Shown here: piece by piece, positions 1 through 13,212 of the stretch | Layout: each line of letters begins with the position of its first letter | How positions within the stretch are numbered: the first letter of the stretch is position 1 | Source of the DNA: an uncultured cyanobacterium | Lineage (GTDB): Bacteria; Cyanobacteriota; Cyanobacteriia; Cyanobacteriales; CAWUOF01 | DNA length: 64,000 nucleotides | Assembly: GCA_963744145.1 (NCBI GenBank) | Contig: CAVUSO010000001.1 | Coordinates: 864,001 to 928,000 of the forward strand | Direction of reading: 5' to 3' | Translations under genes and position numbers: made by a program | The notes under the pieces: model-generated | What the model was told of the DNA's origin: nothing | What the model saw: only the letters and a program-made list of their open reading frames with translations | Databases searched by the model: none

Positions 1-3000
1 ACTGAATCCCGGCAACGGGACTGAAACCATAATATATATGAGGAATATAACATTTAATTTTTTGAATCTTTCTCAATACTGAATCCCGGCAACGGGACTG
101 AAACAAGTTAATTTAACTGATCCGCGAACAAATATTATTACTACTTTCTCAATACTGAATCCCGGCAACGGGACTGAAACTAGATTCTTCTAGATTATCT
201 ATGGAATCTATTAATGACTTTCTCAATACTGAATCCCGGCAACGGGACTGAAACATCTATCTAGACGTTCATCACCATCTAGTTCTATCACTTTCTCAAT
301 ACTGAATCCCGGCAACGGGACTGAAACGTTGAGAAAGCATACTGCTCTATCTGTAGGAATATTAAACTTTTTACACTTTCTCAATACTGAATCCCGGCAA
401 CGGGACTGAAACGATCTCAAACCCAGATTTAAGTCTGATTCTATTAAAAGCTTTCTCAATACTGAATCCCGGCAACGGGACTGAAACTTTTTAAAAAATT
501 TATTCATTATCCATGCCGAAGCTTTCTCAATACTGAATCCCGGCAACGGGACTGAAACTTCCCAGGTCCTGGTTTGAGCAGGTCGAATACTTCTTTCTCA
601 ATACTGAATCCCGGCAACGGGACTGAAACAACCTTGCATGAATTTGGTTAATAGCCTTAACTGGCTTCTTTCTCAATACTGAATCCCGGCAACGGGACTG
701 AAACATCACTTCTCCTAATCCTAACCCTATTCATCAAGTACTTTCTCAATACTGAATCCCGGCAACGGGACTGAAACCTGTCAATCCTTCAAAAGTTGGA
801 TCTTGACAATCAAACTTTCTCAATACTGAATCCCGGCAACGGGACTGAAACCATTTTGTTCTCTAGCAATATTGATTTCTTCCCACTTTCTCAATACTGA
901 ATCCCGGCAACGGGACTGAAACTTAAACTTTTTAATAGTATGACCAGACCGAATATTACTTTCTCAATACTGAATCCCGGCAACGGGACTGAAACAACCA
1001 TCCTAGATTAAGGATCTAGGAAGCTCGAATCTTTCTCAATACTGAATCCCGGCAACGGGACTGAAACAATGGATGATATAGCACAGCCTATCCTACGAGA
1101 TAGGCTTTCTCAATACTGAATCCCGGCAACGGGACTGAAACATGTCAAAATGACCGGATTCAATCGCCATTAACGCTTCTTTCTCAATACTGAATCCCGG
1201 CAACGGGACTGAAACATTCCTAAGCAAACTTTTTTGTCGTCATCGGGCAACTTTCTCAATACTGAATCCCGGCAACGGGACTGAAACTTCTTATGTTGAC
1301 TTAAGAATACATAGAGAGACTCTACTTTCTCAATACTGAATCCCGGCAACGGGACTGAAACTAGATACCCTTGCAAAGCTCCGTTAGTTCTACTACTTTC
1401 TCAATACTGAATCCCGGCAACGGGACTGAAACTTTACTTGAATCGTTTTTTTCGGAAGTTCAAGAACCTTTCTCAATACTGAATCCCGGCAACGGGACTG
1501 AAACTCACGGCCAGTGGCTCCGGTAAAGTCGGAGTTTTTTCTCAACTTTCTCAATACTGAATCCCGGCAACGGGACTGAAACATTTAAACCTAGTTTTTG
1601 GGAGTATTTCTGTTGCGGTTCTTTCTCAATACTGAATCCCGGCAACGGGACTGAAACTTCTGATTCATCTTTAATTTCTAATTCTTCATCTTTCTCAATA
1701 CTGAATCCCGGCAACGGGACTGAAACTCATTTTGCTCAAGGAAAAACTGCGCTAGCTCGATATGACCACTTTCTCAATACTGAATCCCGGCAACGGGACT
1801 GAAACGAGAGCGCGTTGCAAATTGATTCATACTCAAACTCGTCTTTCTCAATACTGAATCCCGGCAACGGGACTGAAACTTCCATCGTAATTTTCTGGGG
1901 TATAAACTTTGACTTTCTCAATACTGAATCCCGGCAACGGGACTGAAACCCATGTTAGTTGGACTTGGGAAGAAATCAATATCTTTCTCAATACTGAATC
2001 CCGGCAACGGGACTGAAACTTCCTATCCCTAATTCGTACAGGGGATTATATAGTTGATCTTTCTCAATACTGAATCCCGGCAACGGGACTGAAACATTCT
2101 GTTTCTAAAATCACTGGGATTGATAACGCCACTTTCTCAATACTGAATCCCGGCAACGGGACTGAAACATGAGAAGCGGGTAGATGTTCAATCTCTATTG
2201 ATTCAACTTTCTCAATACTGAATCCCGGCAACGGGACTGAAACTCCGAAAGCCACTGTATCCGTAACTCCAACCTGATTCCTTTCTCAATACTGAATCCC
2301 GGCAACGGGACTGAAACAACCATACCAGAGTTTTCCACCATAAACCCACGTTAGAAGAATGCTTTCTCAATACTGAATCCCGGCAACGGGACTGAAACAT
2401 ATTAAATGCAATCTGATTTGCAAGGGCAGACTTTCCTTTCTCAATACTGAATCCCGGCAACGGGACTGAAACAACAAAAAATGGATACCCAAGAAGCTGG
2501 AATTGTTGTAAAGCTTTCTCAATACTGAATCCCGGCAACGGGACTGAAACATTTGCCAATGAACGATTTTTACTAATTTGTTACTGCTCGGGACTTTCTC
2601 AATACTGAATCCCGGCAACGGGACTGAAACATCGACCCAGCAAGCAATAGCCCTTTACCAGCGTCTTTCTCAATACTGAATCCCGGCAACGGGACTGAAA
2701 CAACGACGACTAGAAATGATGAAGAAAATTTATTATACTTTCTCAATACTGAATCCCGGCAACGGGACTGAAACTAAACATAAACATCAGAAAAAGGTGT
2801 TACTGGATTAGCCTTTCTCAATACTGAATCCCGGCAACGGGACTGAAACGTTGGCCAAAAGCATCTTGACCTTTAAGCGTATAATACTTTCTCAATACTG
2901 AATCCCGGCAACGGGACTGAAACGTCTCCGGGAATATCCCGGCAATGTAAAAACTCACAACTTTCTCAATACTGAATCCCGGCAACGGGACTGAAACTTG

Positions 3001-6000
3001 GATATAAATCGTTTTAGGCAGACATCTTCTACTTTCTCAATACTGAATCCCGGCAACGGGACTGAAACACCTGACTCATTTTGTATGATCTTTTGACCAG
3101 CTTTTACGCTTTCTCAATACTGAATCCCGGCAACGGGACTGAAACTAATTTCTTTGGGGCATCAATAAGGCTGACTGAAGTCAGCTTTCTCAATACTGAA
3201 TCCCGGCAACGGGACTGAAACATCAAGGGAACAAAACTACAGAAAAGTCAGGATCTTTCTCAATACTGAATCCCGGCAACGGGACTGAAACGCTAAATAG
3301 CTACCTGATAATCCTAGAAAGACTACTTTCTCAATACTGAATCCCGGCAACGGGACTGAAACTCTTCTGGAGTGAAGGTTTGTCCAACGATGCTAGCAAC
3401 TTTCTCAATACTGAATCCCGGCAACGGGACTGAAACATAAGAAAAATAAGGGAAAACTCAAAACCTTACACCTTTCTCAATACTGAATCCCGGCAACGGG
3501 ACTGAAACTCCATTAACGCTTCCTATGTCTTGGCGACATAAAACAACTTTCTCAATACTGAATCCCGGCAACGGGACTGAAACCCTTTTGAAGCAGTTGA
3601 AATAAATGGGCCAAAGGTGAACTTTCTCAATACTGAATCCCGGCAACGGGACTGAAACAAGCAGAAGAAATTGTGATCATAAATCCCAATATGATCTTTC
3701 TCAATACTGAATCCCGGCAACGGGACTGAAACGAGCAAATGTCTGAAAAAGAGATGCAGAATACTTTAAAAGCTTTCTCAATACTGAATCCCGGCAACGG
3801 GACTGAAACTAACGGTTGTCCCTATTTGGCAGTCCCAGCTTGCCAACTTTCTCAATACTGAATCCCGGCAACGGGACTGAAACCTGACGGAGAGGGATAT
3901 TTGGGCACACCTCCACAACCTTTCTCAATACTGAATCCCGGCAACGGGACTGAAACACAGAAAGAAGAAAGAATGCGCGATATCTCCTCCTTTCTCAATA
4001 CTGAATCCCGGCAACGGGACTGAAACTTGAATTTGCTAATCCTGCCGCTGGAATTGCGTTAGGAGCCTTTCTCAATACTGAATCCCGGCAACGGGACTGA
4101 AACTTTTCTAAACAAGACGATTTAAAATTTATCAACAATGCTTTCTCAATACTGAATCCCGGCAACGGGACTGAAACATAAGAAAGCGAAAGAGTAGACA
4201 TAGAAAACCTCACTTTCTCAATACTGAATCCCGGCAACGGGACTGAAACAAAAGACGGACTATATTCACTGTCCCCATCACAGTGAAGGCTTTCTCAATA
4301 CTGAATCCCGGCAACGGGACTGAAACATCGGATTGTTGAGCAAGTCATCTCTTTATCTAATCAGCTTTCTCAATACTGAATCCCGGCAACGGGACTGAAA
4401 CAAACTGCTTCTCTACCGGAGAATAGCTCAACATCGGCTTTCTCAATACTGAATCCCGGCAACGGGACTGAAACCGAAATGATAAATCCAATTGAATGGA
4501 AAGGCTTCTTCTTTCTCAATACTGAATCCCGGCAACGGGACTGAAACTCGGAGAATGCCGAGCAAGTATCTGTTGATATTGCTTTCTCAATACTGAATCC
4601 CGGCAACGGGACTGAAACAGTCTTAAAATCATCTACATCAATATTTTTCCAACTTTCTCAATACTGAATCCCGGCAACGGGACTGAAACTAATCCGACTC
4701 GCTCACACAAATTTAAGGTAAAACTTTCTCAATACTGAATCCCGGCAACGGGACTGAAACCTTGCAAAAGTCCCAATTGCCGGGCGATCGCAAATCTTTC
4801 TCAATACTGAATCCCGGCAACGGGACTGAAACCATTGTATTAGATGGCGGTGGAACGCCTCGACCGAGCTTTCTCAATACTGAATCCCGGCAACGGGACT
4901 GAAACAATAGTCGATTTGCTATGATGAAAGAGTGGATAAAAACTTTCTCAATACTGAATCCCGGCAACGGGACTGAAACTGCTAGTCATTAATTTACCCA
5001 TGATATTCATGATAAAGCTTTCTCAATACTGAATCCCGGCAACGGGACTGAAACATCATAGTGGCTTTTTGTAAATTAGTCCAACTGCCGCTTTCTCAAT
5101 ACTGAATCCCGGCAACGGGACTGAAACTTTAATGGAAATGAAACAGCGCAATATTCGCTAAATCTTTCTCAATACTGAATCCCGGCAACGGGACTGAAAC
5201 TGATACCCCAGTTTTTCTACTTGCTTAAGGATTGCGACTTTCTCAATACTGAATCCCGGCAACGGGACTGAAACGTTATAATACCCATTTATAAATGAAA
5301 CTCCACAGCTTTCTCAATACTGAATCCCGGCAACGGGACTGAAACTCTGAAGAAAAAAGTGCAATAAATCAATCATTGCTTCTTTCTCAATACTGAATCC
5401 CGGCAACGGGACTGAAACATGCAGCTAGTCCTCAAATTATTAAAATTGCAAGTACTTTCTCAATACTGAATCCCGGCAACGGGACTGAAACGGGCACAAA
5501 TTCTTGCCACAGACACAGCTCAATTAGTACTTTCTCAATACTGAATCCCGGCAACGGGACTGAAACTCTGTAAAAGTCCGGGGATGAGAAATAAGTGTAA
5601 GTATCTTTCTCAATACTGAATCCCGGCAACGGGACTGAAACAAGCCAATGAGATGAAAGGAATATCGCCCGATGATTTCTTTCTCAATACTGAATCCCGG
5701 CAACGGGACTGAAACGATTATGAATCACCTAAAACCCTTCATTTAAGAACTTTCTCAATACTGAATCCCGGCAACGGGACTGAAACATTCATAATCTACC
5801 GCTTCTTTTAAAACCCAAACTTCACCTCTTTCTCAATACTGAATCCCGGCAACGGGACTGAAACTATGTGGTCTCTTCATCCCATAGTTTAGTTAAATCC
5901 CCGACTTTCTCAATACTGAATCCCGGCAACGGGACTGAAACTATACAAATCCAAACTCATACTACCATTGTAATCCTAATTGCTTTCTCAATACTGAATC

Positions 6001-9000
6001 CCGGCAACGGGACTGAAACAAACTAACCTCCTCTTCTAGTTCGTCTGACAGTTCCCCTTTCTCAATACTGAATCCCGGCAACGGGACTGAAACATGTGTT
6101 GGAAGAGAAATATATTGAACAAATTCCGATCTTTCTCAATACTGAATCCCGGCAACGGGACTGAAACAAGCTTACCACGATTCGTGGTTGAAGCTTTCCA
6201 CCTTTCTCAATACTGAATCCCGGCAACGGGACTGAAACTTACTACACCACCCACAACACCTCTGCCACGATTGAGCTTTCTCAATACTGAATCCCGGCAA
6301 CGGGACTGAAACGAGAGCTGATCGCATCAATACCTAAGCTGATACCCTCTTTCTCAATACTGAATCCCGGCAACGGGACTGAAACGCCCAAATTGCAGGG
6401 CACCGCGATGGAAGGATGATCGTCTTTCTCAATACTGAATCCCGGCAACGGGACTGAAACGACTTAGCTTTTTTAGTTCCCGATCCACCACCGGACGGCA
6501 CAGCTTTCTCAATACTGAATCCCGGCAACGGGACTGAAACAAAGCAAAAAAACTTTTTTCTCGCAATTTAGCAACTTTCTCAATACTGAATCCCGGCAAC
6601 GGGACTGAAACACTATATGTAATTTATCTTCATATAATATAGTAAAAGCTTTCTCAATACTGAATCCCGGCAACGGGACTGAAACCAGTTAATGGCATCT
6701 CAAATGCTGTTGCTGCAATCAATCTTTCTCAATACTGAATCCCGGCAACGGGACTGAAACTTCCTGCAAATACCAGGTGAAGTGATGCGACTAGCTGCCT
6801 TTCTCAATACTGAATCCCGGCAACGGGACTGAAACTTGAGAAAGTTGTCCAGATTGAATCGCTCCAGTTATCGCTGTCTTTCTCAATACTGAATCCCGGC
6901 AACGGGACTGAAACGAGAGTCAAGTGTTAGTAATTGTCCTGGGTCAAGCTTTCTCAATACTGAATCCCGGCAACGGGACTGAAACAAGAATAAGCCAGAC
7001 AATTTATTACCGTTTTCTGCTTTCTCAATACTGAATCCCGGCAACGGGACTGAAACTGGCTGCGTTCATATTTTTCCTTATTAGCTAAGTCTTCTCTTTC
7101 TCAATACTGAATCCCGGCAACGGGACTGAAACACGTTCTAATGATGGATTTTGACTTTAAATCAATCTTTCTCAATACTGAATCCCGGCAACGGGACTGA
7201 AACGAATCAGCTCATTTTCAAGCAGCATGGAATGATCCGACTTTCTCAATACTGAATCCCGGCAACGGGACTGAAACCAGAAAAGCTTTTGAGCCGTTCG
7301 GGTTCGGGTTGAGGACTGCTTTCTCAATACTGAATCCCGGCAACGGGACTGAAACTTAGCCTGTTACGGCATGACTTACTACGGAAAGCAGCTTTCTCAA
7401 TACTGAATCCCGGCAACGGGACTGAAACTAATAGCACCGCTAGAATTTTGACCAGAATAAGGTGCTTTCTCAATACTGAATCCCGGCAACGGGACTGAAA
7501 CCGATAACGATGTTATCAATGCGCCAAGTTTGTCAGCTTTCTCAATACTGAATCCCGGCAACGGGACTGAAACTTCTGCACTGATATAGAATAAATCAGC
7601 ATCTTGTCCCTCTTTCTCAATACTGAATCCCGGCAACGGGACTGAAACGATCAGGGAAGATTTTCTTACCTTGCTCATGGTCTTGCTGCTTTCTCAATAC
7701 TGAATCCCGGCAACGGGACTGAAACCTGTTCTGGTAGGTTATCTCCCGGAACAATTTCTAAATCTTTCTCAATACTGAATCCCGGCAACGGGACTGAAAC
7801 TCACTCAGACGGTCTGGTGCGTCACTACCAGACATACCACTTTCTCAATACTGAATCCCGGCAACGGGACTGAAACTATTCATATAATCTTCTTCTATAA
7901 GATAATGATCTACAGCTTTCTCAATACTGAATCCCGGCAACGGGACTGAAACAATATCAAGATTAAATTGATCATCTACAGGATATCCGATCTTTCTCAA
8001 TACTGAATCCCGGCAACGGGACTGAAACTATAAGATTAAATATACACCTGTATGTTTACATCTAACTTTCTCAATACTGAATCCCGGCAACGGGACTGAA
8101 ACTTTGTTTCCCTACAACCATATAGGGAAACGGAGACAACTTTCTCAATACTGAATCCCGGCAACGGGACTGAAACAATTATAGTTAGGATATATAATTT
8201 TAGCCAGACTGCTTTCTCAATACTGAATCCCGGCAACGGGACTGAAACTATAGAAGATAGATTATAAGATTAGCTACATCTACCTTCTTTCTCAATACTG
8301 AATCCCGGCAACGGGACTGAAACGATTACTATATAGATACTCAACCATAGATGAGTAAGCTTTCTCAATACTGAATCCCGGCAACGGGACTGAAACAGCC
8401 TGTTTACAATTGCATTTACAAACTTAGGAATGCTTTCTCAATACTGAATCCCGGCAACGGGACTGAAACATACAGCTTCACTGATTGCTTCACTAAAACG
8501 TAACTTTCTCAATACTGAATCCCGGCAACGGGACTGAAACACTCAGCTATGCCAAACCATAGATGACACTGCGACAGCTTTCTCAATACTGAATCCCGGC
8601 AACGGGACTGAAACCGATCGCTGGGGGTCAACTAGGCGGCGAAATCGGAGCTTTCTCAATACTGAATCCCGGCAACGGGACTGAAACGGTAACTTTGCAA
8701 TACTTGATATCTGCCATTTTTTGCCGCTTTCTCAATACTGAATCCCGGCAACGGGACTGAAACGTATATTTTGAAGTTCCTAAGACATAAAATAAATCAC
8801 TTTCTCAATACTGAATCCCGGCAACGGGACTGAAACTTTACAATGGTGGACAATGATATTAAACAGAGGCTGCTTTCTCAATACTGAATCCCGGCAACGG
8901 GACTGAAACATTTAGCTACTTCAGCCTGCTCCCTTTTGGCATCTTTCTCAATACTGAATCCCGGCAACGGGACTGAAACTTTACAATTACTCCGGCGGCA

Positions 9001-11699
9001 AAACCAACAGCTCCACTTTCTCAATACTGAATCCCGGCAACGGGACTGAAACCCCTCCAGGGACTGAACCCAACAGACCTTTAATTTCCCGCTTTCTCAA
9101 TACTGAATCCCGGCAACGGGACTGAAACATATGCTGGAGCGGAAATTTAATCAGCAGATTTCGTTAGCTTTCTCAATACTGAATCCCGGCAACGGGACTG
9201 AAACACAGACGATCATTCTTATCAAACTCCAGACCGGCAGGACTTTCTCAATACTGAATCCCGGCAACGGGACTGAAACTCCAAAAAGAATCCTAAAAAA
9301 CCACCATCAATAACTTTCTCAATACTGAATCCCGGCAACGGGACTGAAACAAATTACGCCTTCTTCTGTTAGTGTAAACCCATTGACTTTCTCAATACTG
9401 AATCCCGGCAACGGGACTGAAACGACAAGTCTTTCAGGGACAATGTTGCCTATTTTCTCTTTCTCAATACTGAATCCCGGCAACGGGACTGAAACCTTTA
9501 GCTCATCTTGATACTCTTGTGTTTCTTGAAACTCAAACTTTCTCAATACTGAATCCCGGCAACGGGACTGAAACCTTCCTGAGACATATTTAAGTCTTCT
9601 CTTAGTTTTGCCAACTTTCTCAATACTGAATCCCGGCAACGGGACTGAAACAGATTCAGATCGTCAAGACGATCTAAATCTGAAATCCTTTCTCAATACT
9701 GAATCCCGGCAACGGGACTGAAACATCTTATCTAGATCACGATGACAAAACTCATACTTAACTTTCTCAATACTGAATCCCGGCAACGGGACTGAAACCA
9801 ATCTGTTTTTCAATTGCTACTCCGGACTTTTCCTTTCTCAATACTGAATCCCGGCAACGGGACTGAAACAATTCTTGAGTTTTGTTGCGATCGCATCGGT
9901 ACGCAACTTTCTCAATACTGAATCCCGGCAACGGGACTGAAACATGCGACTAGCTGCCACTATACAACCTGACGATACAGTCTTTCTCAATACTGAATCC
10001 CGGCAACGGGACTGAAACAGGAACTATTTTAAAGGCAAAAGTAGATCAGTTTTATCCTTTCTCAATACTGAATCCCGGCAACGGGACTGAAACATTGTCG
10101 CAATACTAGAAGTTCCCGCTGCCGTTCCCGCTTTCTCAATACTGAATCCCGGCAACGGGACTGAAACATAATGCAGTAAAAATTACTACTCCGAGAGCAT
10201 GGACAACTTTCTCAATACTGAATCCCGGCAACGGGACTGAAACCTCTCCTTCAGAAATCAACTGATCAATAGAAATATCAAGCTTTCTCAATACTGAATC
10301 CCGGCAACGGGACTGAAACCAGCAGGTTCTGAACCGGGAGGGGTTGGCGTTGGCGTTGGCTTTCTCAATACTGAATCCCGGCAACGGGACTGAAACATAA
10401 AGATAGAGAGCCATACGCTCTTACCCTTTCCCCTTCTTTCTCAATACTGAATCCCGGCAACGGGACTGAAACATGGATGACAGGGGGATAATATCGGCAG
10501 ATTTGGCCACTTTCTCAATACTGAATCCCGGCAACGGGACTGAAACAAACGGTTAAAGTCTATCGTGCTGCTTACGCTGCTTTCTCAATACTGAATCCCG
10601 GCAACGGGACTGAAACAACCCACTCCATTGGCCATGCCCGTGGAAATTTCTTCTCTTTCTCAATACTGAATCCCGGCAACGGGACTGAAACTGTTGCTTG
10701 GGGTTCCGATGGATGACTATCTAGTCATCTTTCTCAATACTGAATCCCGGCAACGGGACTGAAACATAATCTTCTTTATCAATTTCTTCCTGAATCTCCA
10801 AGCTTTCTCAATACTGAATCCCGGCAACGGGACTGAAACTTGTTGCGGTTGGTGAATGTTCTGGGGGCGGAAGGTTGGCTTTCTCAATACTGAATCCCGG
10901 CAACGGGACTGAAACTTATCGCTTAGATCGAAACCTTTTAAATGATCTAAACTTTCTCAATACTGAATCCCGGCAACGGGACTGAAACACTTGATTGCCT
11001 CCCGTAGCGGAAAATAATATTAAATCTTTCTCAATACTGAATCCCGGCAACGGGACTGAAACCAATTTGTTCCAGATTCGTAACCCGAATTGATCCTACT
11101 TTCTCAATACTGAATCCCGGCAACGGGACTGAAACTGATTTTAATCTCCGAAGTTGTTTGTGTCTTTCATCTTTCTCAATACTGAATCCCGGCAACGGGA
11201 CTGAAACAACAGTTCTTCATAAATTAATTCGATGCAGTCCTTAACTCCAGCTTTCTCAATACTGAATCCCGGCAACGGGACTGAAACGAGGAAAAAATGA
11301 TCCTACATATTCAGAAAATCAAACTTTCTCAATACTGAATCCCGGCAACGGGACTGAAACTTGTTCTTAGTTCATCGTGATTCTCTTGTCCCGCAGACTC
11401 AAACTTTCTCAATACTGAATCCCGGCAACGGGACTGAAACTCGCCTCCCACTTCTTCAGTGGCGTAGTTCCGTCCGACTTTCTCAATACTGAATCCCGGC
11501 AACGGGACTGAAACTTTGCAAGGGAAGTAAAAAATCTCAACAGGAACTTTCTTCTTTCTCAATACTGAATCCCGGCAACGGGACTGAAACTAACCGTCGG
11601 TAGCTATTCCACCATCTCTTAATGTGGCTTTCTCAATACTGAATCCCGGCAACGGGACTGAAACTTGTTTGAAGACAGAGTTTTGCTATCCGAACTTGT

Positions 11700-12448
11700 T
11701 GTCACTTGAACCATAAAATGGCAGCAGGGTAGAACCATAAAATGGCAGTAAAAATCGCTGAAATACTGATTATTGGGTTGAGGCTAAAAGCAATTGAGGG
11801 TGGGAACGGAAGCATAAAATGGCAGTAAGTACCAGAAAATGGCAGCATTATGTAGCAATAAATACAAATAACTAACTAATAGCCTTGAAAACCTCTGGTC
11901 AAAAGACTTCAGCGGAATTGTCATTTAAGAAGAGCAAATAGACAATTTACTCTGGAGCTGGGAAAATTGGGCAAGTGAATCGCCGAAAATCCTCAGTTAG
12001 ACATCAAAGATGATGACAGTGTTGATTTTCTGGCCAATTGAGCGGGGATTGAGCAGAAGAGTTCTTGTCGGCTGAAAAGCTTACCAATCAAAGACTTTAA
12101 AGATGATCCTAGAAAAACCAGAACCATAAAGTGGCAGTAAATCAAAAAATCATGAAAAAAAACGGGGGAATGGGAACAATTGTTCGCTTGAATAGAAATG
12201 TGTGACCCTAGAAAAAACACTGGGAATAAAGCAAAAATGGTAACAGGAGAAGAGTTGAGCAAATAGTCTGGGAACATCAAATCTCGGCAGGTTATAAGTT
12301 ACATAGTAAATTTCTCTTTCACCACCCTGGATAATTTGTACTGTCCCAAAATAATTTATACTTTCTCATCTTTGTGGAAGCATAAAGTGGCAGTATCCTA
12401 TTGGAAGCATAAAGTGGCAATTACTGCCATTTTATGGTTCAAGTGACA
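11700..12448. mobile_element. Non-autonomous TGT...ACA element with Tn7/Tn5053/Mu-like ends inserted in the CRISPR array
   Basis: Perfect 25-bp TIR TGTCACTTGAACCATAAAATGGCAG (11700-11724 / 12424-12448). A 17-bp motif with consensus GAASCATAAARTGGCAG occurs at 11708, 11732, 11809, 11829, 12121, 12377 and 12404, and inverted at 12424. No transposase ORF. Confidence 0.85.
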
Positions 12449-12643
12449 ATAAGAAACTATGTTTCTTTCTCAATACTGAATCCCGGCAACGGGACTGAAA
12501 CTTATTCCCTAATAACCCTAGGGAATATTTTAACCAGCTTTCTCAATACTGAATCCCGGTAACGGGACTGATACCTCTCCACTCATCAGTTCGATCTTCA
12601 TTTCTAACACTTTCTCAATACTGAATCCCGGTAACGGGACTGA

Positions 12644-13097
12644 TCCCAATTTCGTAAATTAGCACTACAGATAATTGCTCCCTTCGACTCCGCCCTTCGA
12701 CTACGCGAGCGGGTAAACTCAGGGTAAACGATCGCTCATCTCAAGGAAACATCAACAGAATTTTGTCCGGATTTGTATTAGGGGCGAAGCATTCGGGCGA
12801 TAATTTATTACTCAAATTTTACCCTGAGCGAAGTCGAAGGGCGGTTAATATTTATATCCGAATGCTGATGCCTACGGCATCGCTACGTGAACGCCCAGTT
12901 CTTTGCCGAGAGTTCCCAAAAAATTCTTAACTGAATCGTATTGATATATATTTGATCGATTGGCTGCATAGATGGTGAGGGCTCTCGCATTTCGGTAATA
13001 TTATGCTTCGTTTGAGCTATCATTTATGCGCCGAAATGCTTTGCCCCTACAGTTAACTGAACCATATTGATTTGTAGTTAGAATTCAATAATTGGTA
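12644..13097. mobile_element. Nested MITE/REP composite inserted inside a CRISPR repeat
   Basis: Imperfect TIRs TCCCAATT.../...AATTGGTA with a TGA duplication (12641-12643 / 13098-13100). The repeat resumes as TGAAAT, followed by a 35-bp spacer. The interior has GGGGCGAAGCATTCGG REP-like hairpins and CTTAACTGAATCGTATTG. Confidence 0.7.
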
Positions 13098-13212
13098 TGA
13101 AATACGGTAAAAGGAACCGAATAAGTAGTGGGAGGAAACTTTCTCAATACTGAATCCCGGTAACGGGACTGAAACTGTTATTCGGTTTTCAAGGTTCAGG
13201 TCTGTAACTTTC

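Follow-up and report, generated by a model that had tools for sequence, protein, structure and literature searches.

How did a short stretch of DNA with transposon ends and no genes come to lie inside a spacer of a CRISPR array? The question is raised by a 64 000-nucleotide piece of the genome of an uncultured cyanobacterium (contig CAVUSO010000001.1 of assembly GCA_963744145.1, positions 864 001–928 000 of the forward strand; the whole piece is called the window below), in which a gene-less mini-element of 749 bp occupies window positions 11700–12448 within a spacer of such an array. The element is best explained as a non-autonomous, probably immobile miniature derivative of a cyanobacterial clade of Tn7-like transposons which uses CRISPR repeats as attachment sites, a reading to which a probability of roughly 0.85 is given. 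That Tn7-like transposons use CRISPR repeats in this way was already published in 2025, and no principle is discovered here.

The element begins and ends with a perfect 25-bp terminal inverted repeat (TIR) of the TGT...ACA type, TGTCACTTGAACCATAAAATGGCAG; this 25-mer occurs exactly twice in the window (11700–11724 on the + strand and 12424–12448 on the − strand) and was matched in 0 of 100 shuffles. A 17-mer, GAASCATAAARTGGCAG, searched with up to two mismatches, has eight sites in the window, every one of them within the element (shuffle expectation 0.03). Four of these sites lie at the end that is on the left as read here (11708, 11732, 11809 and 11829, all +, the last with two mismatches), one in the middle (12121, +) and three at the right-hand end [12377 (+), 12404 (+, one mismatch) and 12424 (−)]. 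Seven sites are thus on the + strand and the terminal right-hand site alone is on the − strand, both inner right-end sites (12377 and 12404) being oriented opposite to it. A first-pass annotation, made by a model from the letters of this DNA, had reported the same length, termini, inverted repeats and site layout, and all of these were reproduced. No open reading frame (ORF) of more than 95 aa overlaps the element, and tblastn with the Tns and Cas proteins of relatives detected no coding remnant inside it (best E-value 0.4). An Rfam scan gave no match within the element and only weak CRISPR-DR52 matches to the CRISPR repeats; in a promoter and terminator scan the element was at chance level, with no terminator on the + strand.

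Nine of 60 other genomes of the order and, in a wider search, 18 of 400 have ends alike in terminus and in the arrangement of the 17-mer. A pattern scan with one genome per species gave at least 120 stretches, mostly from Nostoc, Calothrix and other cyanobacteria; Bacillus, Paenibacillus, Acidobacteria and Chloroflexi were also among the matches listed. Where genes adjoin such ends they are always of the Tn7 type, namely TnsA and a Mu-type TnsB, which are often fused with each other, an AAA+ protein resembling TnsC and, as a rule, TniQ/TnsD. TnsA, TnsB and TnsC are encoded at locus L026 (G056:C196) and, together with TnsD, at L023; L024 holds TnsA and TnsB fragments; a TnsAB fusion and TnsC are encoded at L059, with two TniQ proteins at L025 and with a TniQ of 403 aa at L151; TnsC and a TniQ of 400 aa are found at L041 (an Iningainema tapete contig), and TniQ plus Cas6/Cas5 at L028 (G014:C69). 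The description of the element as transposase-less with Tn7-type ends was borne out, and the search for autonomous copies that had been proposed with it succeeded in other cyanobacteria, beside related ends, and found none in the element's own genome.

The relatives also give the two ends their identity. The tnsA or tnsAB gene starts 209–282 bp inside the end at which all sites are direct (L024, L026 and L059), tnsD stops 63–114 bp before the end with sites of either orientation (L025, L151 and L041), and full-length elements have their tns genes reading from the former end type towards the latter. Because of this gene placement, the left end as read here is the tnsA/tnsAB-proximal one, called 'right end' in the Peters nomenclature; the right end as read here is the target-proximal 'left end'. 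The former comprises the TIR at 11700–11724 (+) and four 17-mer sites at 11708–11845 (+), all in the orientation of the terminus, which are putative TnsB or TnsAB binding sites. The latter spans 12377–12448 (−), with the terminal site at 12424–12440 (−) and the inner sites at 12377 and 12404 (+), and the terminal site forms a near-palindrome with its neighbour. The isolated fifth site (12121–12137, +), 421 bp from the terminus, may belong to a long right end of ∼500 bp; right ends of about this size, which is unusually long, are described for one subgroup in the main text of PMC11837452. The both-orientation pattern was present in ten of ten and 13 of 13 ends displayed in two sets. Asymmetric ends with several putative transposase sites, which at the target-proximal end point both ways, are the Tn7-type pattern, and the opposed sites that had looked odd at first are a known hallmark, because both site orientations in the left end are a stated feature of Tn7-type ends in the account of Hsieh & Peters (2023; PMC9881144). 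A size of 749 bp is compatible with an 'ends only' remnant, the non-coding ends of full-length relatives measuring 209–282 bp plus 63–182 bp.

The host array consists of 212 repeats on the + strand (C1:860258–877175, window −3742 to 13175) and so begins 3742 bp before the window. The element lies between repeats 208 and 209. The interrupted spacer is divided into an upstream part of 35 nt (11665–11699, +) and a downstream part of 16 nt (12449–12464, +), which is followed by the intact repeat 209 (12465–12501, +), the probable attachment site. The 3′ part of this repeat, GGGACTGAAAC, at 12491–12501, is 43–53 bp from the element terminus. Measured from the target-proximal end, the repeat begins after 16 nt and its 3′ end (..GAAAC) is reached at +53; the corresponding values are 12 nt and +48 for L004 in genome G010, where the repeat is unrelated, and 15 nt and +50 for L041. 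In three of three array cases (the 749-bp element, L004 and L041) the repeat reads ...GAAAC away from the element. The orientation is uniform, the target-proximal end facing the downstream repeat in the 749-bp element, in L004, in both elements of L041 and in L068, and at L041 it is a full-length element with a 400-aa TnsD that abuts the array by this end. In L068, a metagenome-assembled genome of the Cyanophyceae, the arrangement is alike and lies beside type III cas genes; there and at L041 the other end type faces the upstream part of an array.

The same distance recurs at tRNA genes. In two full-length relatives a tRNA gene (tRNA-Leu in one, tRNA-Thr in the other) has its 3′ end 30–31 bp from the target-proximal end, and a third adjoins tRNA-Ser; the T-arm (..TTGAAC or TTCGAAC) falls at +43 to +52 in L025, L028 and L160. 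At the array-free loci L151 and L153 the sequences ..GGAAAA and AGAAAA stand at +45 to +51. A GAA[AC] core starts between +44 and +50 in eight of 11 anchored flanks, an interval that was picked after inspection of the data.

This geometry matches that of the array-targeting family of Chacon Machado & Peters (Mob DNA, 2025; PMC11837452), as set out in its main text: minimal tnsAB–tnsC–tnsD elements without cargo, 18 of 22 of them within CRISPR arrays, inserted at a fixed spacer position upstream of an intact repeat and in one orientation in all arrays, with a conserved motif 40–50 bp from the left end that is common to repeats and tRNA genes. The examples given include a plasmid of Allocoleopsis franciscana PCC 7113 and Calothrix sp. 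336/3. The 749-bp element shares with these members, as described there, the insertion into a spacer before an intact repeat, the left end turned towards the repeat, the motif spacing, the orientation within the array, the lack of cargo and the multiple TnsAB sites (putative here) in the ends; the earlier suggestion of a family that targets arrays by recognising their repeats fits well with this agreement. It differs in that the published members were found via TnsD and keep at least tnsD, whereas this element is gene-less, has no 5-bp target duplication and has neither a helper nor a sibling copy in its genome. Because the family-defining genes for TnsAB, TnsC and a C-terminally shortened TnsD are absent from it, the element can only be a derivative and not an autonomous member. 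The array-targeting TnsD is reported in that text to be without a C-terminal region. In our set the TnsD proteins of L041 and L151 end ∼55 residues before those of the tRNA-adjacent L025 and L028, and this C-terminal shortening is the published distinguishing feature of the array-targeting family.

By analogy with these systems, a TniQ-family selector (TnsD in its short form) would recognise the 3′ part of the CRISPR repeat (...GGGACTGAAAC) and recruit TnsC, and TnsAB would then join the element into the spacer just upstream of the repeat. The expected outcome would be a target-proximal end 12–16 nt before a repeat that is kept intact.

The annotation had called the array type I-D, and this label stood as to repeat type and not as to gene neighbourhood. 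The genome holds three large arrays of one I-D repeat family with 212, 130 and 163 repeats (C1:860258–877175, C1:2336558–2347312 and C1:4811439–4823631), ∼40 kb in total of 7.7 Mb, and only the third is adjacent to cas genes. It directly follows, on the matching strand, a complete I-D operon (Cas3′, Cas10d/Csc3, Csc2, Csc1, Cas6, Cas4 and Cas1d), and its repeat differs by 1 nt from that of the host array. Beside the 212-repeat array, the 15.3 kb upstream hold 12 ORFs of 90 aa or more, eight of which were scanned, as were the first four ORFs downstream; none of those scanned is a cas gene. Judged from its repeat sequence, the host array is of type I-D by repeat identity and is itself an orphan. 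Apart from the I-D operon, the genome carries a cas operon of type I-MYXAN at ∼C1:1.654–1.663 Mb. The array reads left to right and its right-hand side is the trailer end, because the repeats after the element are degenerate (0, 2, 3 and 1 mismatches in repeats 209–212); the direction was also taken from the cas-adjacent array, in which the repeat strand is identical. Only four repeats, three of them mutated, lie downstream of the element. With just these four between it and the degenerate end of the trailer, it probably affects immunity to a negligible extent, and the inactivation of distal spacers suggested in the annotation is not supported.

Several further observations were made on these arrays. 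The degenerate repeats 211 and 212 are separated by an insert of 492 bp (12647–13138) that contains an inverted repeat (12690–12706/12828–12844) and belongs to a dispersed repeat with a core of ∼170 nt and more than 500 BLAST matches genome-wide; it looks like an abundant element resembling a miniature inverted-repeat transposable element (MITE). A connection between this unrelated dispersed repeat and the 749-bp element was rejected. In the second I-D type array an insertion sequence (IS) of 1122 bp (C1:2341403–2342524), which encodes a 332-aa transposase with DDE_3 and HTH_Tnp_IS630 domains, lies between repeats 64 and 65, and partial copies of it occur at three more places in the genome. 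Contigs of the sequencing run have a loose end at window position 12464 that matches the terminus of this IS, which is probably an effect of assembly across repeats. The 5 bp that flank the 749-bp element on either side (11695–11699 and 12449–12453) are complementary at four of five positions and lengthen the inverted repeat to 30 nt; this extension was taken as coincidence, and L004 shows nothing alike. In a single soil-metagenome run, which may be the source sample, both junctions of the element were present and no contig crossed an empty site; in two sister runs no matching sequence was found for either junction.

A number of results weigh against the assignment to the array-targeting clade. 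CRISPR arrays were found at only one of eight, two of 80 and none of 15 loci with related ends. Since ends of the wider clade mostly lie away from arrays, array preference is a trait of a subgroup, and the 749-bp element is placed in that subgroup by its location. What makes the element a member is its cis features and its position. Its ends match others over short lengths at best (86% over 65 nt in G010, 80% over 74 nt in G293 and 91% over 46 nt in L172), and its interior pointed to no parent. The flanks read CTTGT and ATAAG, so that a 5-bp target-site duplication is absent although the family makes one, and neither of the two array-embedded mini-elements (the 749-bp element and L004) has it. 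Perfect 5-bp duplications, the Tn7 signature, were present in four of the 11 complete elements that could be delimited (L018, L022 and two in L081). The two parts of the split spacer add up to 51 nt (46 nt after subtraction of 5 bp), and only three of the other 209 spacers of the host array reach 46 nt. The unrelated insertions in arrays of the same genome indicate some neutral accumulation. Finally, the search of the genome with Pfam hidden Markov models for Mu-transpos_C, TniQ and TnsA gave no match and is uninformative for two of these three families, for which the control genomes were likewise unmatched.

The closest relative is itself a mini-element in a CRISPR array, the 344-bp L004 (G010:C304), to which the first 65 nt quoted above refer. 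The G293 element carries a 403-aa TnsD. A metagenome scan for the 25-nt terminus with two positions free gave four contigs, one of which (L172) bears a full tnsAB–tnsC–tniQ element whose target-proximal end is the one with 91% identity; its flank of 59 bp runs to ..GGATTGAAAC at +47, which may be a CRISPR repeat. A plasmid collection gave one weak end match, to a Gloeothece plasmid with uninformative context, and a nucleotide-similarity search of this collection did not recover the published Allocoleopsis plasmid copy.

Taken as a derivative of the array-targeting clade, the element now stands alone. It is single-copy by BLAST in the 7.7-Mb, four-contig genome, and the 17-mer (up to two mismatches) has four scattered matches outside it, which were taken as chance. 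Its interior (∼170–675) matches nothing elsewhere in this genome and, among 400 other genomes of the order, gave one 32-nt match that is probably due to chance. In tblastn searches that used first 13 and later 12 Tns/Cas proteins from relatives, no tns homologues were detected in the genome, neither tnsA, tnsB and tnsC nor tniQ; a TnsAB protein query likewise gave no match there, and as controls it matched G293, the genome from which it was taken, and an incomplete copy in G010. The absence of helpers is taken from these tblastn and controlled TnsAB searches, the Pfam result being set aside. G010 contains mini-elements together with a fragment of a tns operon; here the mini-element is alone. 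Because the genome is without tns genes, the element is probably immobile now.

Its history could have taken either of two courses. Internal deletion may have stripped all three genes from a full-length tnsAB–tnsC–tnsD element after its insertion, or a mini-element may have been moved by the proteins of an autonomous copy that has since gone from the genome. The odds between gene loss in place and movement in trans are roughly even, and the claim of the first-pass annotation that the element was mobilised in trans could not be upheld as it stood, no helper being present in the genome and gene loss in place being equally possible. That no 5-bp duplication flanks the element suggests some rearrangement after insertion. 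Such an event might have been recombination between a pair of copies sharing an array, a situation met at L041, which could leave a single copy with unmatched flanks. A more far-reaching variant is put forward only tentatively and is considered rather improbable: the gene-less mini-elements might be a MITE-like class of their own that hops between arrays on proteins supplied in trans, including those of plasmids lost later, and pairs of copies might recombine or transpose replicatively and delete blocks of spacers. Such copy-pair rearrangement would explain why duplications are missing in mini-elements within arrays and present in those outside.

At L041 the two elements (1–389 and 2003–4663) bracket one array of 22 repeats in one orientation, and the tnsAB-proximal end of one of them has extra inverted sites ∼260–330 bp from its terminus.

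Targeting by the repeat has to be set against an insertion without any array preference that merely survived in neutral DNA near the trailer end. The 492-bp dispersed repeat and the IS630-type IS in arrays of this genome speak for neutral survival, and the related mini-elements outside arrays (L018, L021 and L022) for untargeted insertion. On the other side, the offset of 12–16 nt and the orientation are identical in three independent arrays, both agree with the published family with its 18 of 22 members in arrays (main text of PMC11837452), and the three arrays of the genome amount to just ∼40 kb of 7.7 Mb. Untargeted insertion is accordingly regarded as unlikely.

Still less credit is given to insertion guided by CRISPR RNA (crRNA), in which the Cascade of a CRISPR-associated transposon (CAST) of type I-D or I-B, loaded with a crRNA from this very array, would have placed the mini-element downstream of a matching spacer. 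The host array is of the I-D type, CASTs can use host arrays according to PMC11300857, and a CAST-like relative with the same end architecture exists at L028, where Cas6, Cas5 and two further ORFs lie beside TniQ near the end. The type I-D CAST as described by Hsieh & Peters (PMC9881144) inserts 75 ± 6 bp downstream of a GTT protospacer-adjacent motif with its left end on the target side and makes a 5-bp duplication. Here it is the wrong end that faces the upstream spacers; the upstream spacer is preceded by AAC where GTT would be expected, and the insertion is 109 bp away from that position. The self-targeting suggested in the annotation is disfavoured by all three features. Neither Cascade genes nor an internal CRISPR array are present in the element, tniQ, tnsC and tnsB were not found in its genome, and in the full-length L041 element inserted at an array the available sequence from its end to tnsD/tnsC is free of cas genes. 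Across arrays whose repeats are of three unrelated kinds, the distance to the downstream repeat stays fixed, as would fit a repeat motif, and not a spacer, being recognised.

The CAST-like element at L028 (9171–14737) lies beside tRNA-Thr and encodes a TniQ with a helix-turn-helix, Cas6, a 519-aa ORF, a 241-aa ORF and Cas5; no Cas3 was seen, and its cargo is a type I restriction–modification system.

Although TG..CA termini together with repeated sites near the ends are also a feature of IS21 and Tn402-type elements, descent of the element as a MITE from an ordinary IS (IS21, IS481, IS630 and others) or from Tn5053/Tn402 is scarcely credible, and both parentages raised in the annotation found no support: the related ends with adjacent genes always have TnsA domains (PF08722/PF08721, separate or fused to TnsB) and a Mu-type TnsB with a TnsC-like AAA+ protein and usually TniQ, no IstA/IstB, TniR or IS481 transposase was seen beside them, target duplications are 5 bp where present, and the target here is a CRISPR repeat. 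Members of the Tn5053/Tn402 family encode TniA, TniB, TniQ and TniR, lack TnsA and go to res sites.

Descent from the array-targeting Tn7-like clade can be further placed by comparison with three other systems. Elements with TnsAB fusions that target tRNA genes, and CASTs such as the I-D McCAST and I-B2 (PMC9881144, in the account given there), share the TGT/ACA termini in most cases, the target-proximal end with sites in both orientations and the motif distance, the T-arm lying at about +43 to +52 and the repeat motif of the 749-bp element at +43 to +53; they differ in being large, in carrying cargo, in a TnsD that is ∼55 aa longer at its C-terminus, in often having a second TniQ with Cascade and in their tRNA target. 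Laboratory mini-Tn7 donors and natural MITEs likewise consist of two ends only and owe their mobility wholly to proteins in trans; the 749-bp element is natural, lies in a CRISPR array, has no source of proteins and, unlike typical MITE families, is single-copy, and it should probably be seen as a fossil and not as an active MITE. Phage PhiAP1.1, which is cited in the main text of PMC11837452, also uses CRISPR repeats as a landing site, but it disrupts the repeat and silences downstream spacers, whereas the 749-bp element sits in a spacer and leaves the repeat intact.

Other forms with these ends were met among the relatives. Compact Tn7-like elements of 4.5–4.8 kb with the same end architecture occur at L026 (518–5321), L059 (362–4859) and L163 (G277); they encode TnsA/TnsB (or TnsAB) and TnsC, with no TniQ/TnsD detected, and the TnsC-like protein of L059 has 479 aa compared with 383–394 aa in L025, L041 and L151. 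An uncultured Chloroflexia contig (L081) holds two gene-less mini-elements in tandem (1043–1405, 363 bp, and 1412–1780, 369 bp), both flanked by a perfect 5-bp duplication, and because of these, ends-only derivatives of this end family exist outside the cyanobacteria too. The terminal motif is frequent in contigs of Bacillus, Paenibacillus and Acidobacteria among the matches listed.

Degraded and deletion copies, possibly mobilised in trans, are noted in the main text of PMC11837452, where the terms 'MITE' and 'non-autonomous' do not occur, and a search of a limited literature collection found no description of natural gene-less mini-elements of the array-targeting family. Reconstitution of this family in E. 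coli has failed so far, as reported in the same text, and the 749-bp element offers a compact natural donor together with a defined I-D repeat target for such work. It indicates that the array-targeting family decays to, or exists as, ends-only elements that searches based on TnsD cannot find. The two array-embedded mini-elements without target duplications hint at rearrangement of arrays by such elements, and the persistence of a remnant in a genome free of helpers bears on the question of mobilisation in trans that is left open in the main text of PMC11837452.

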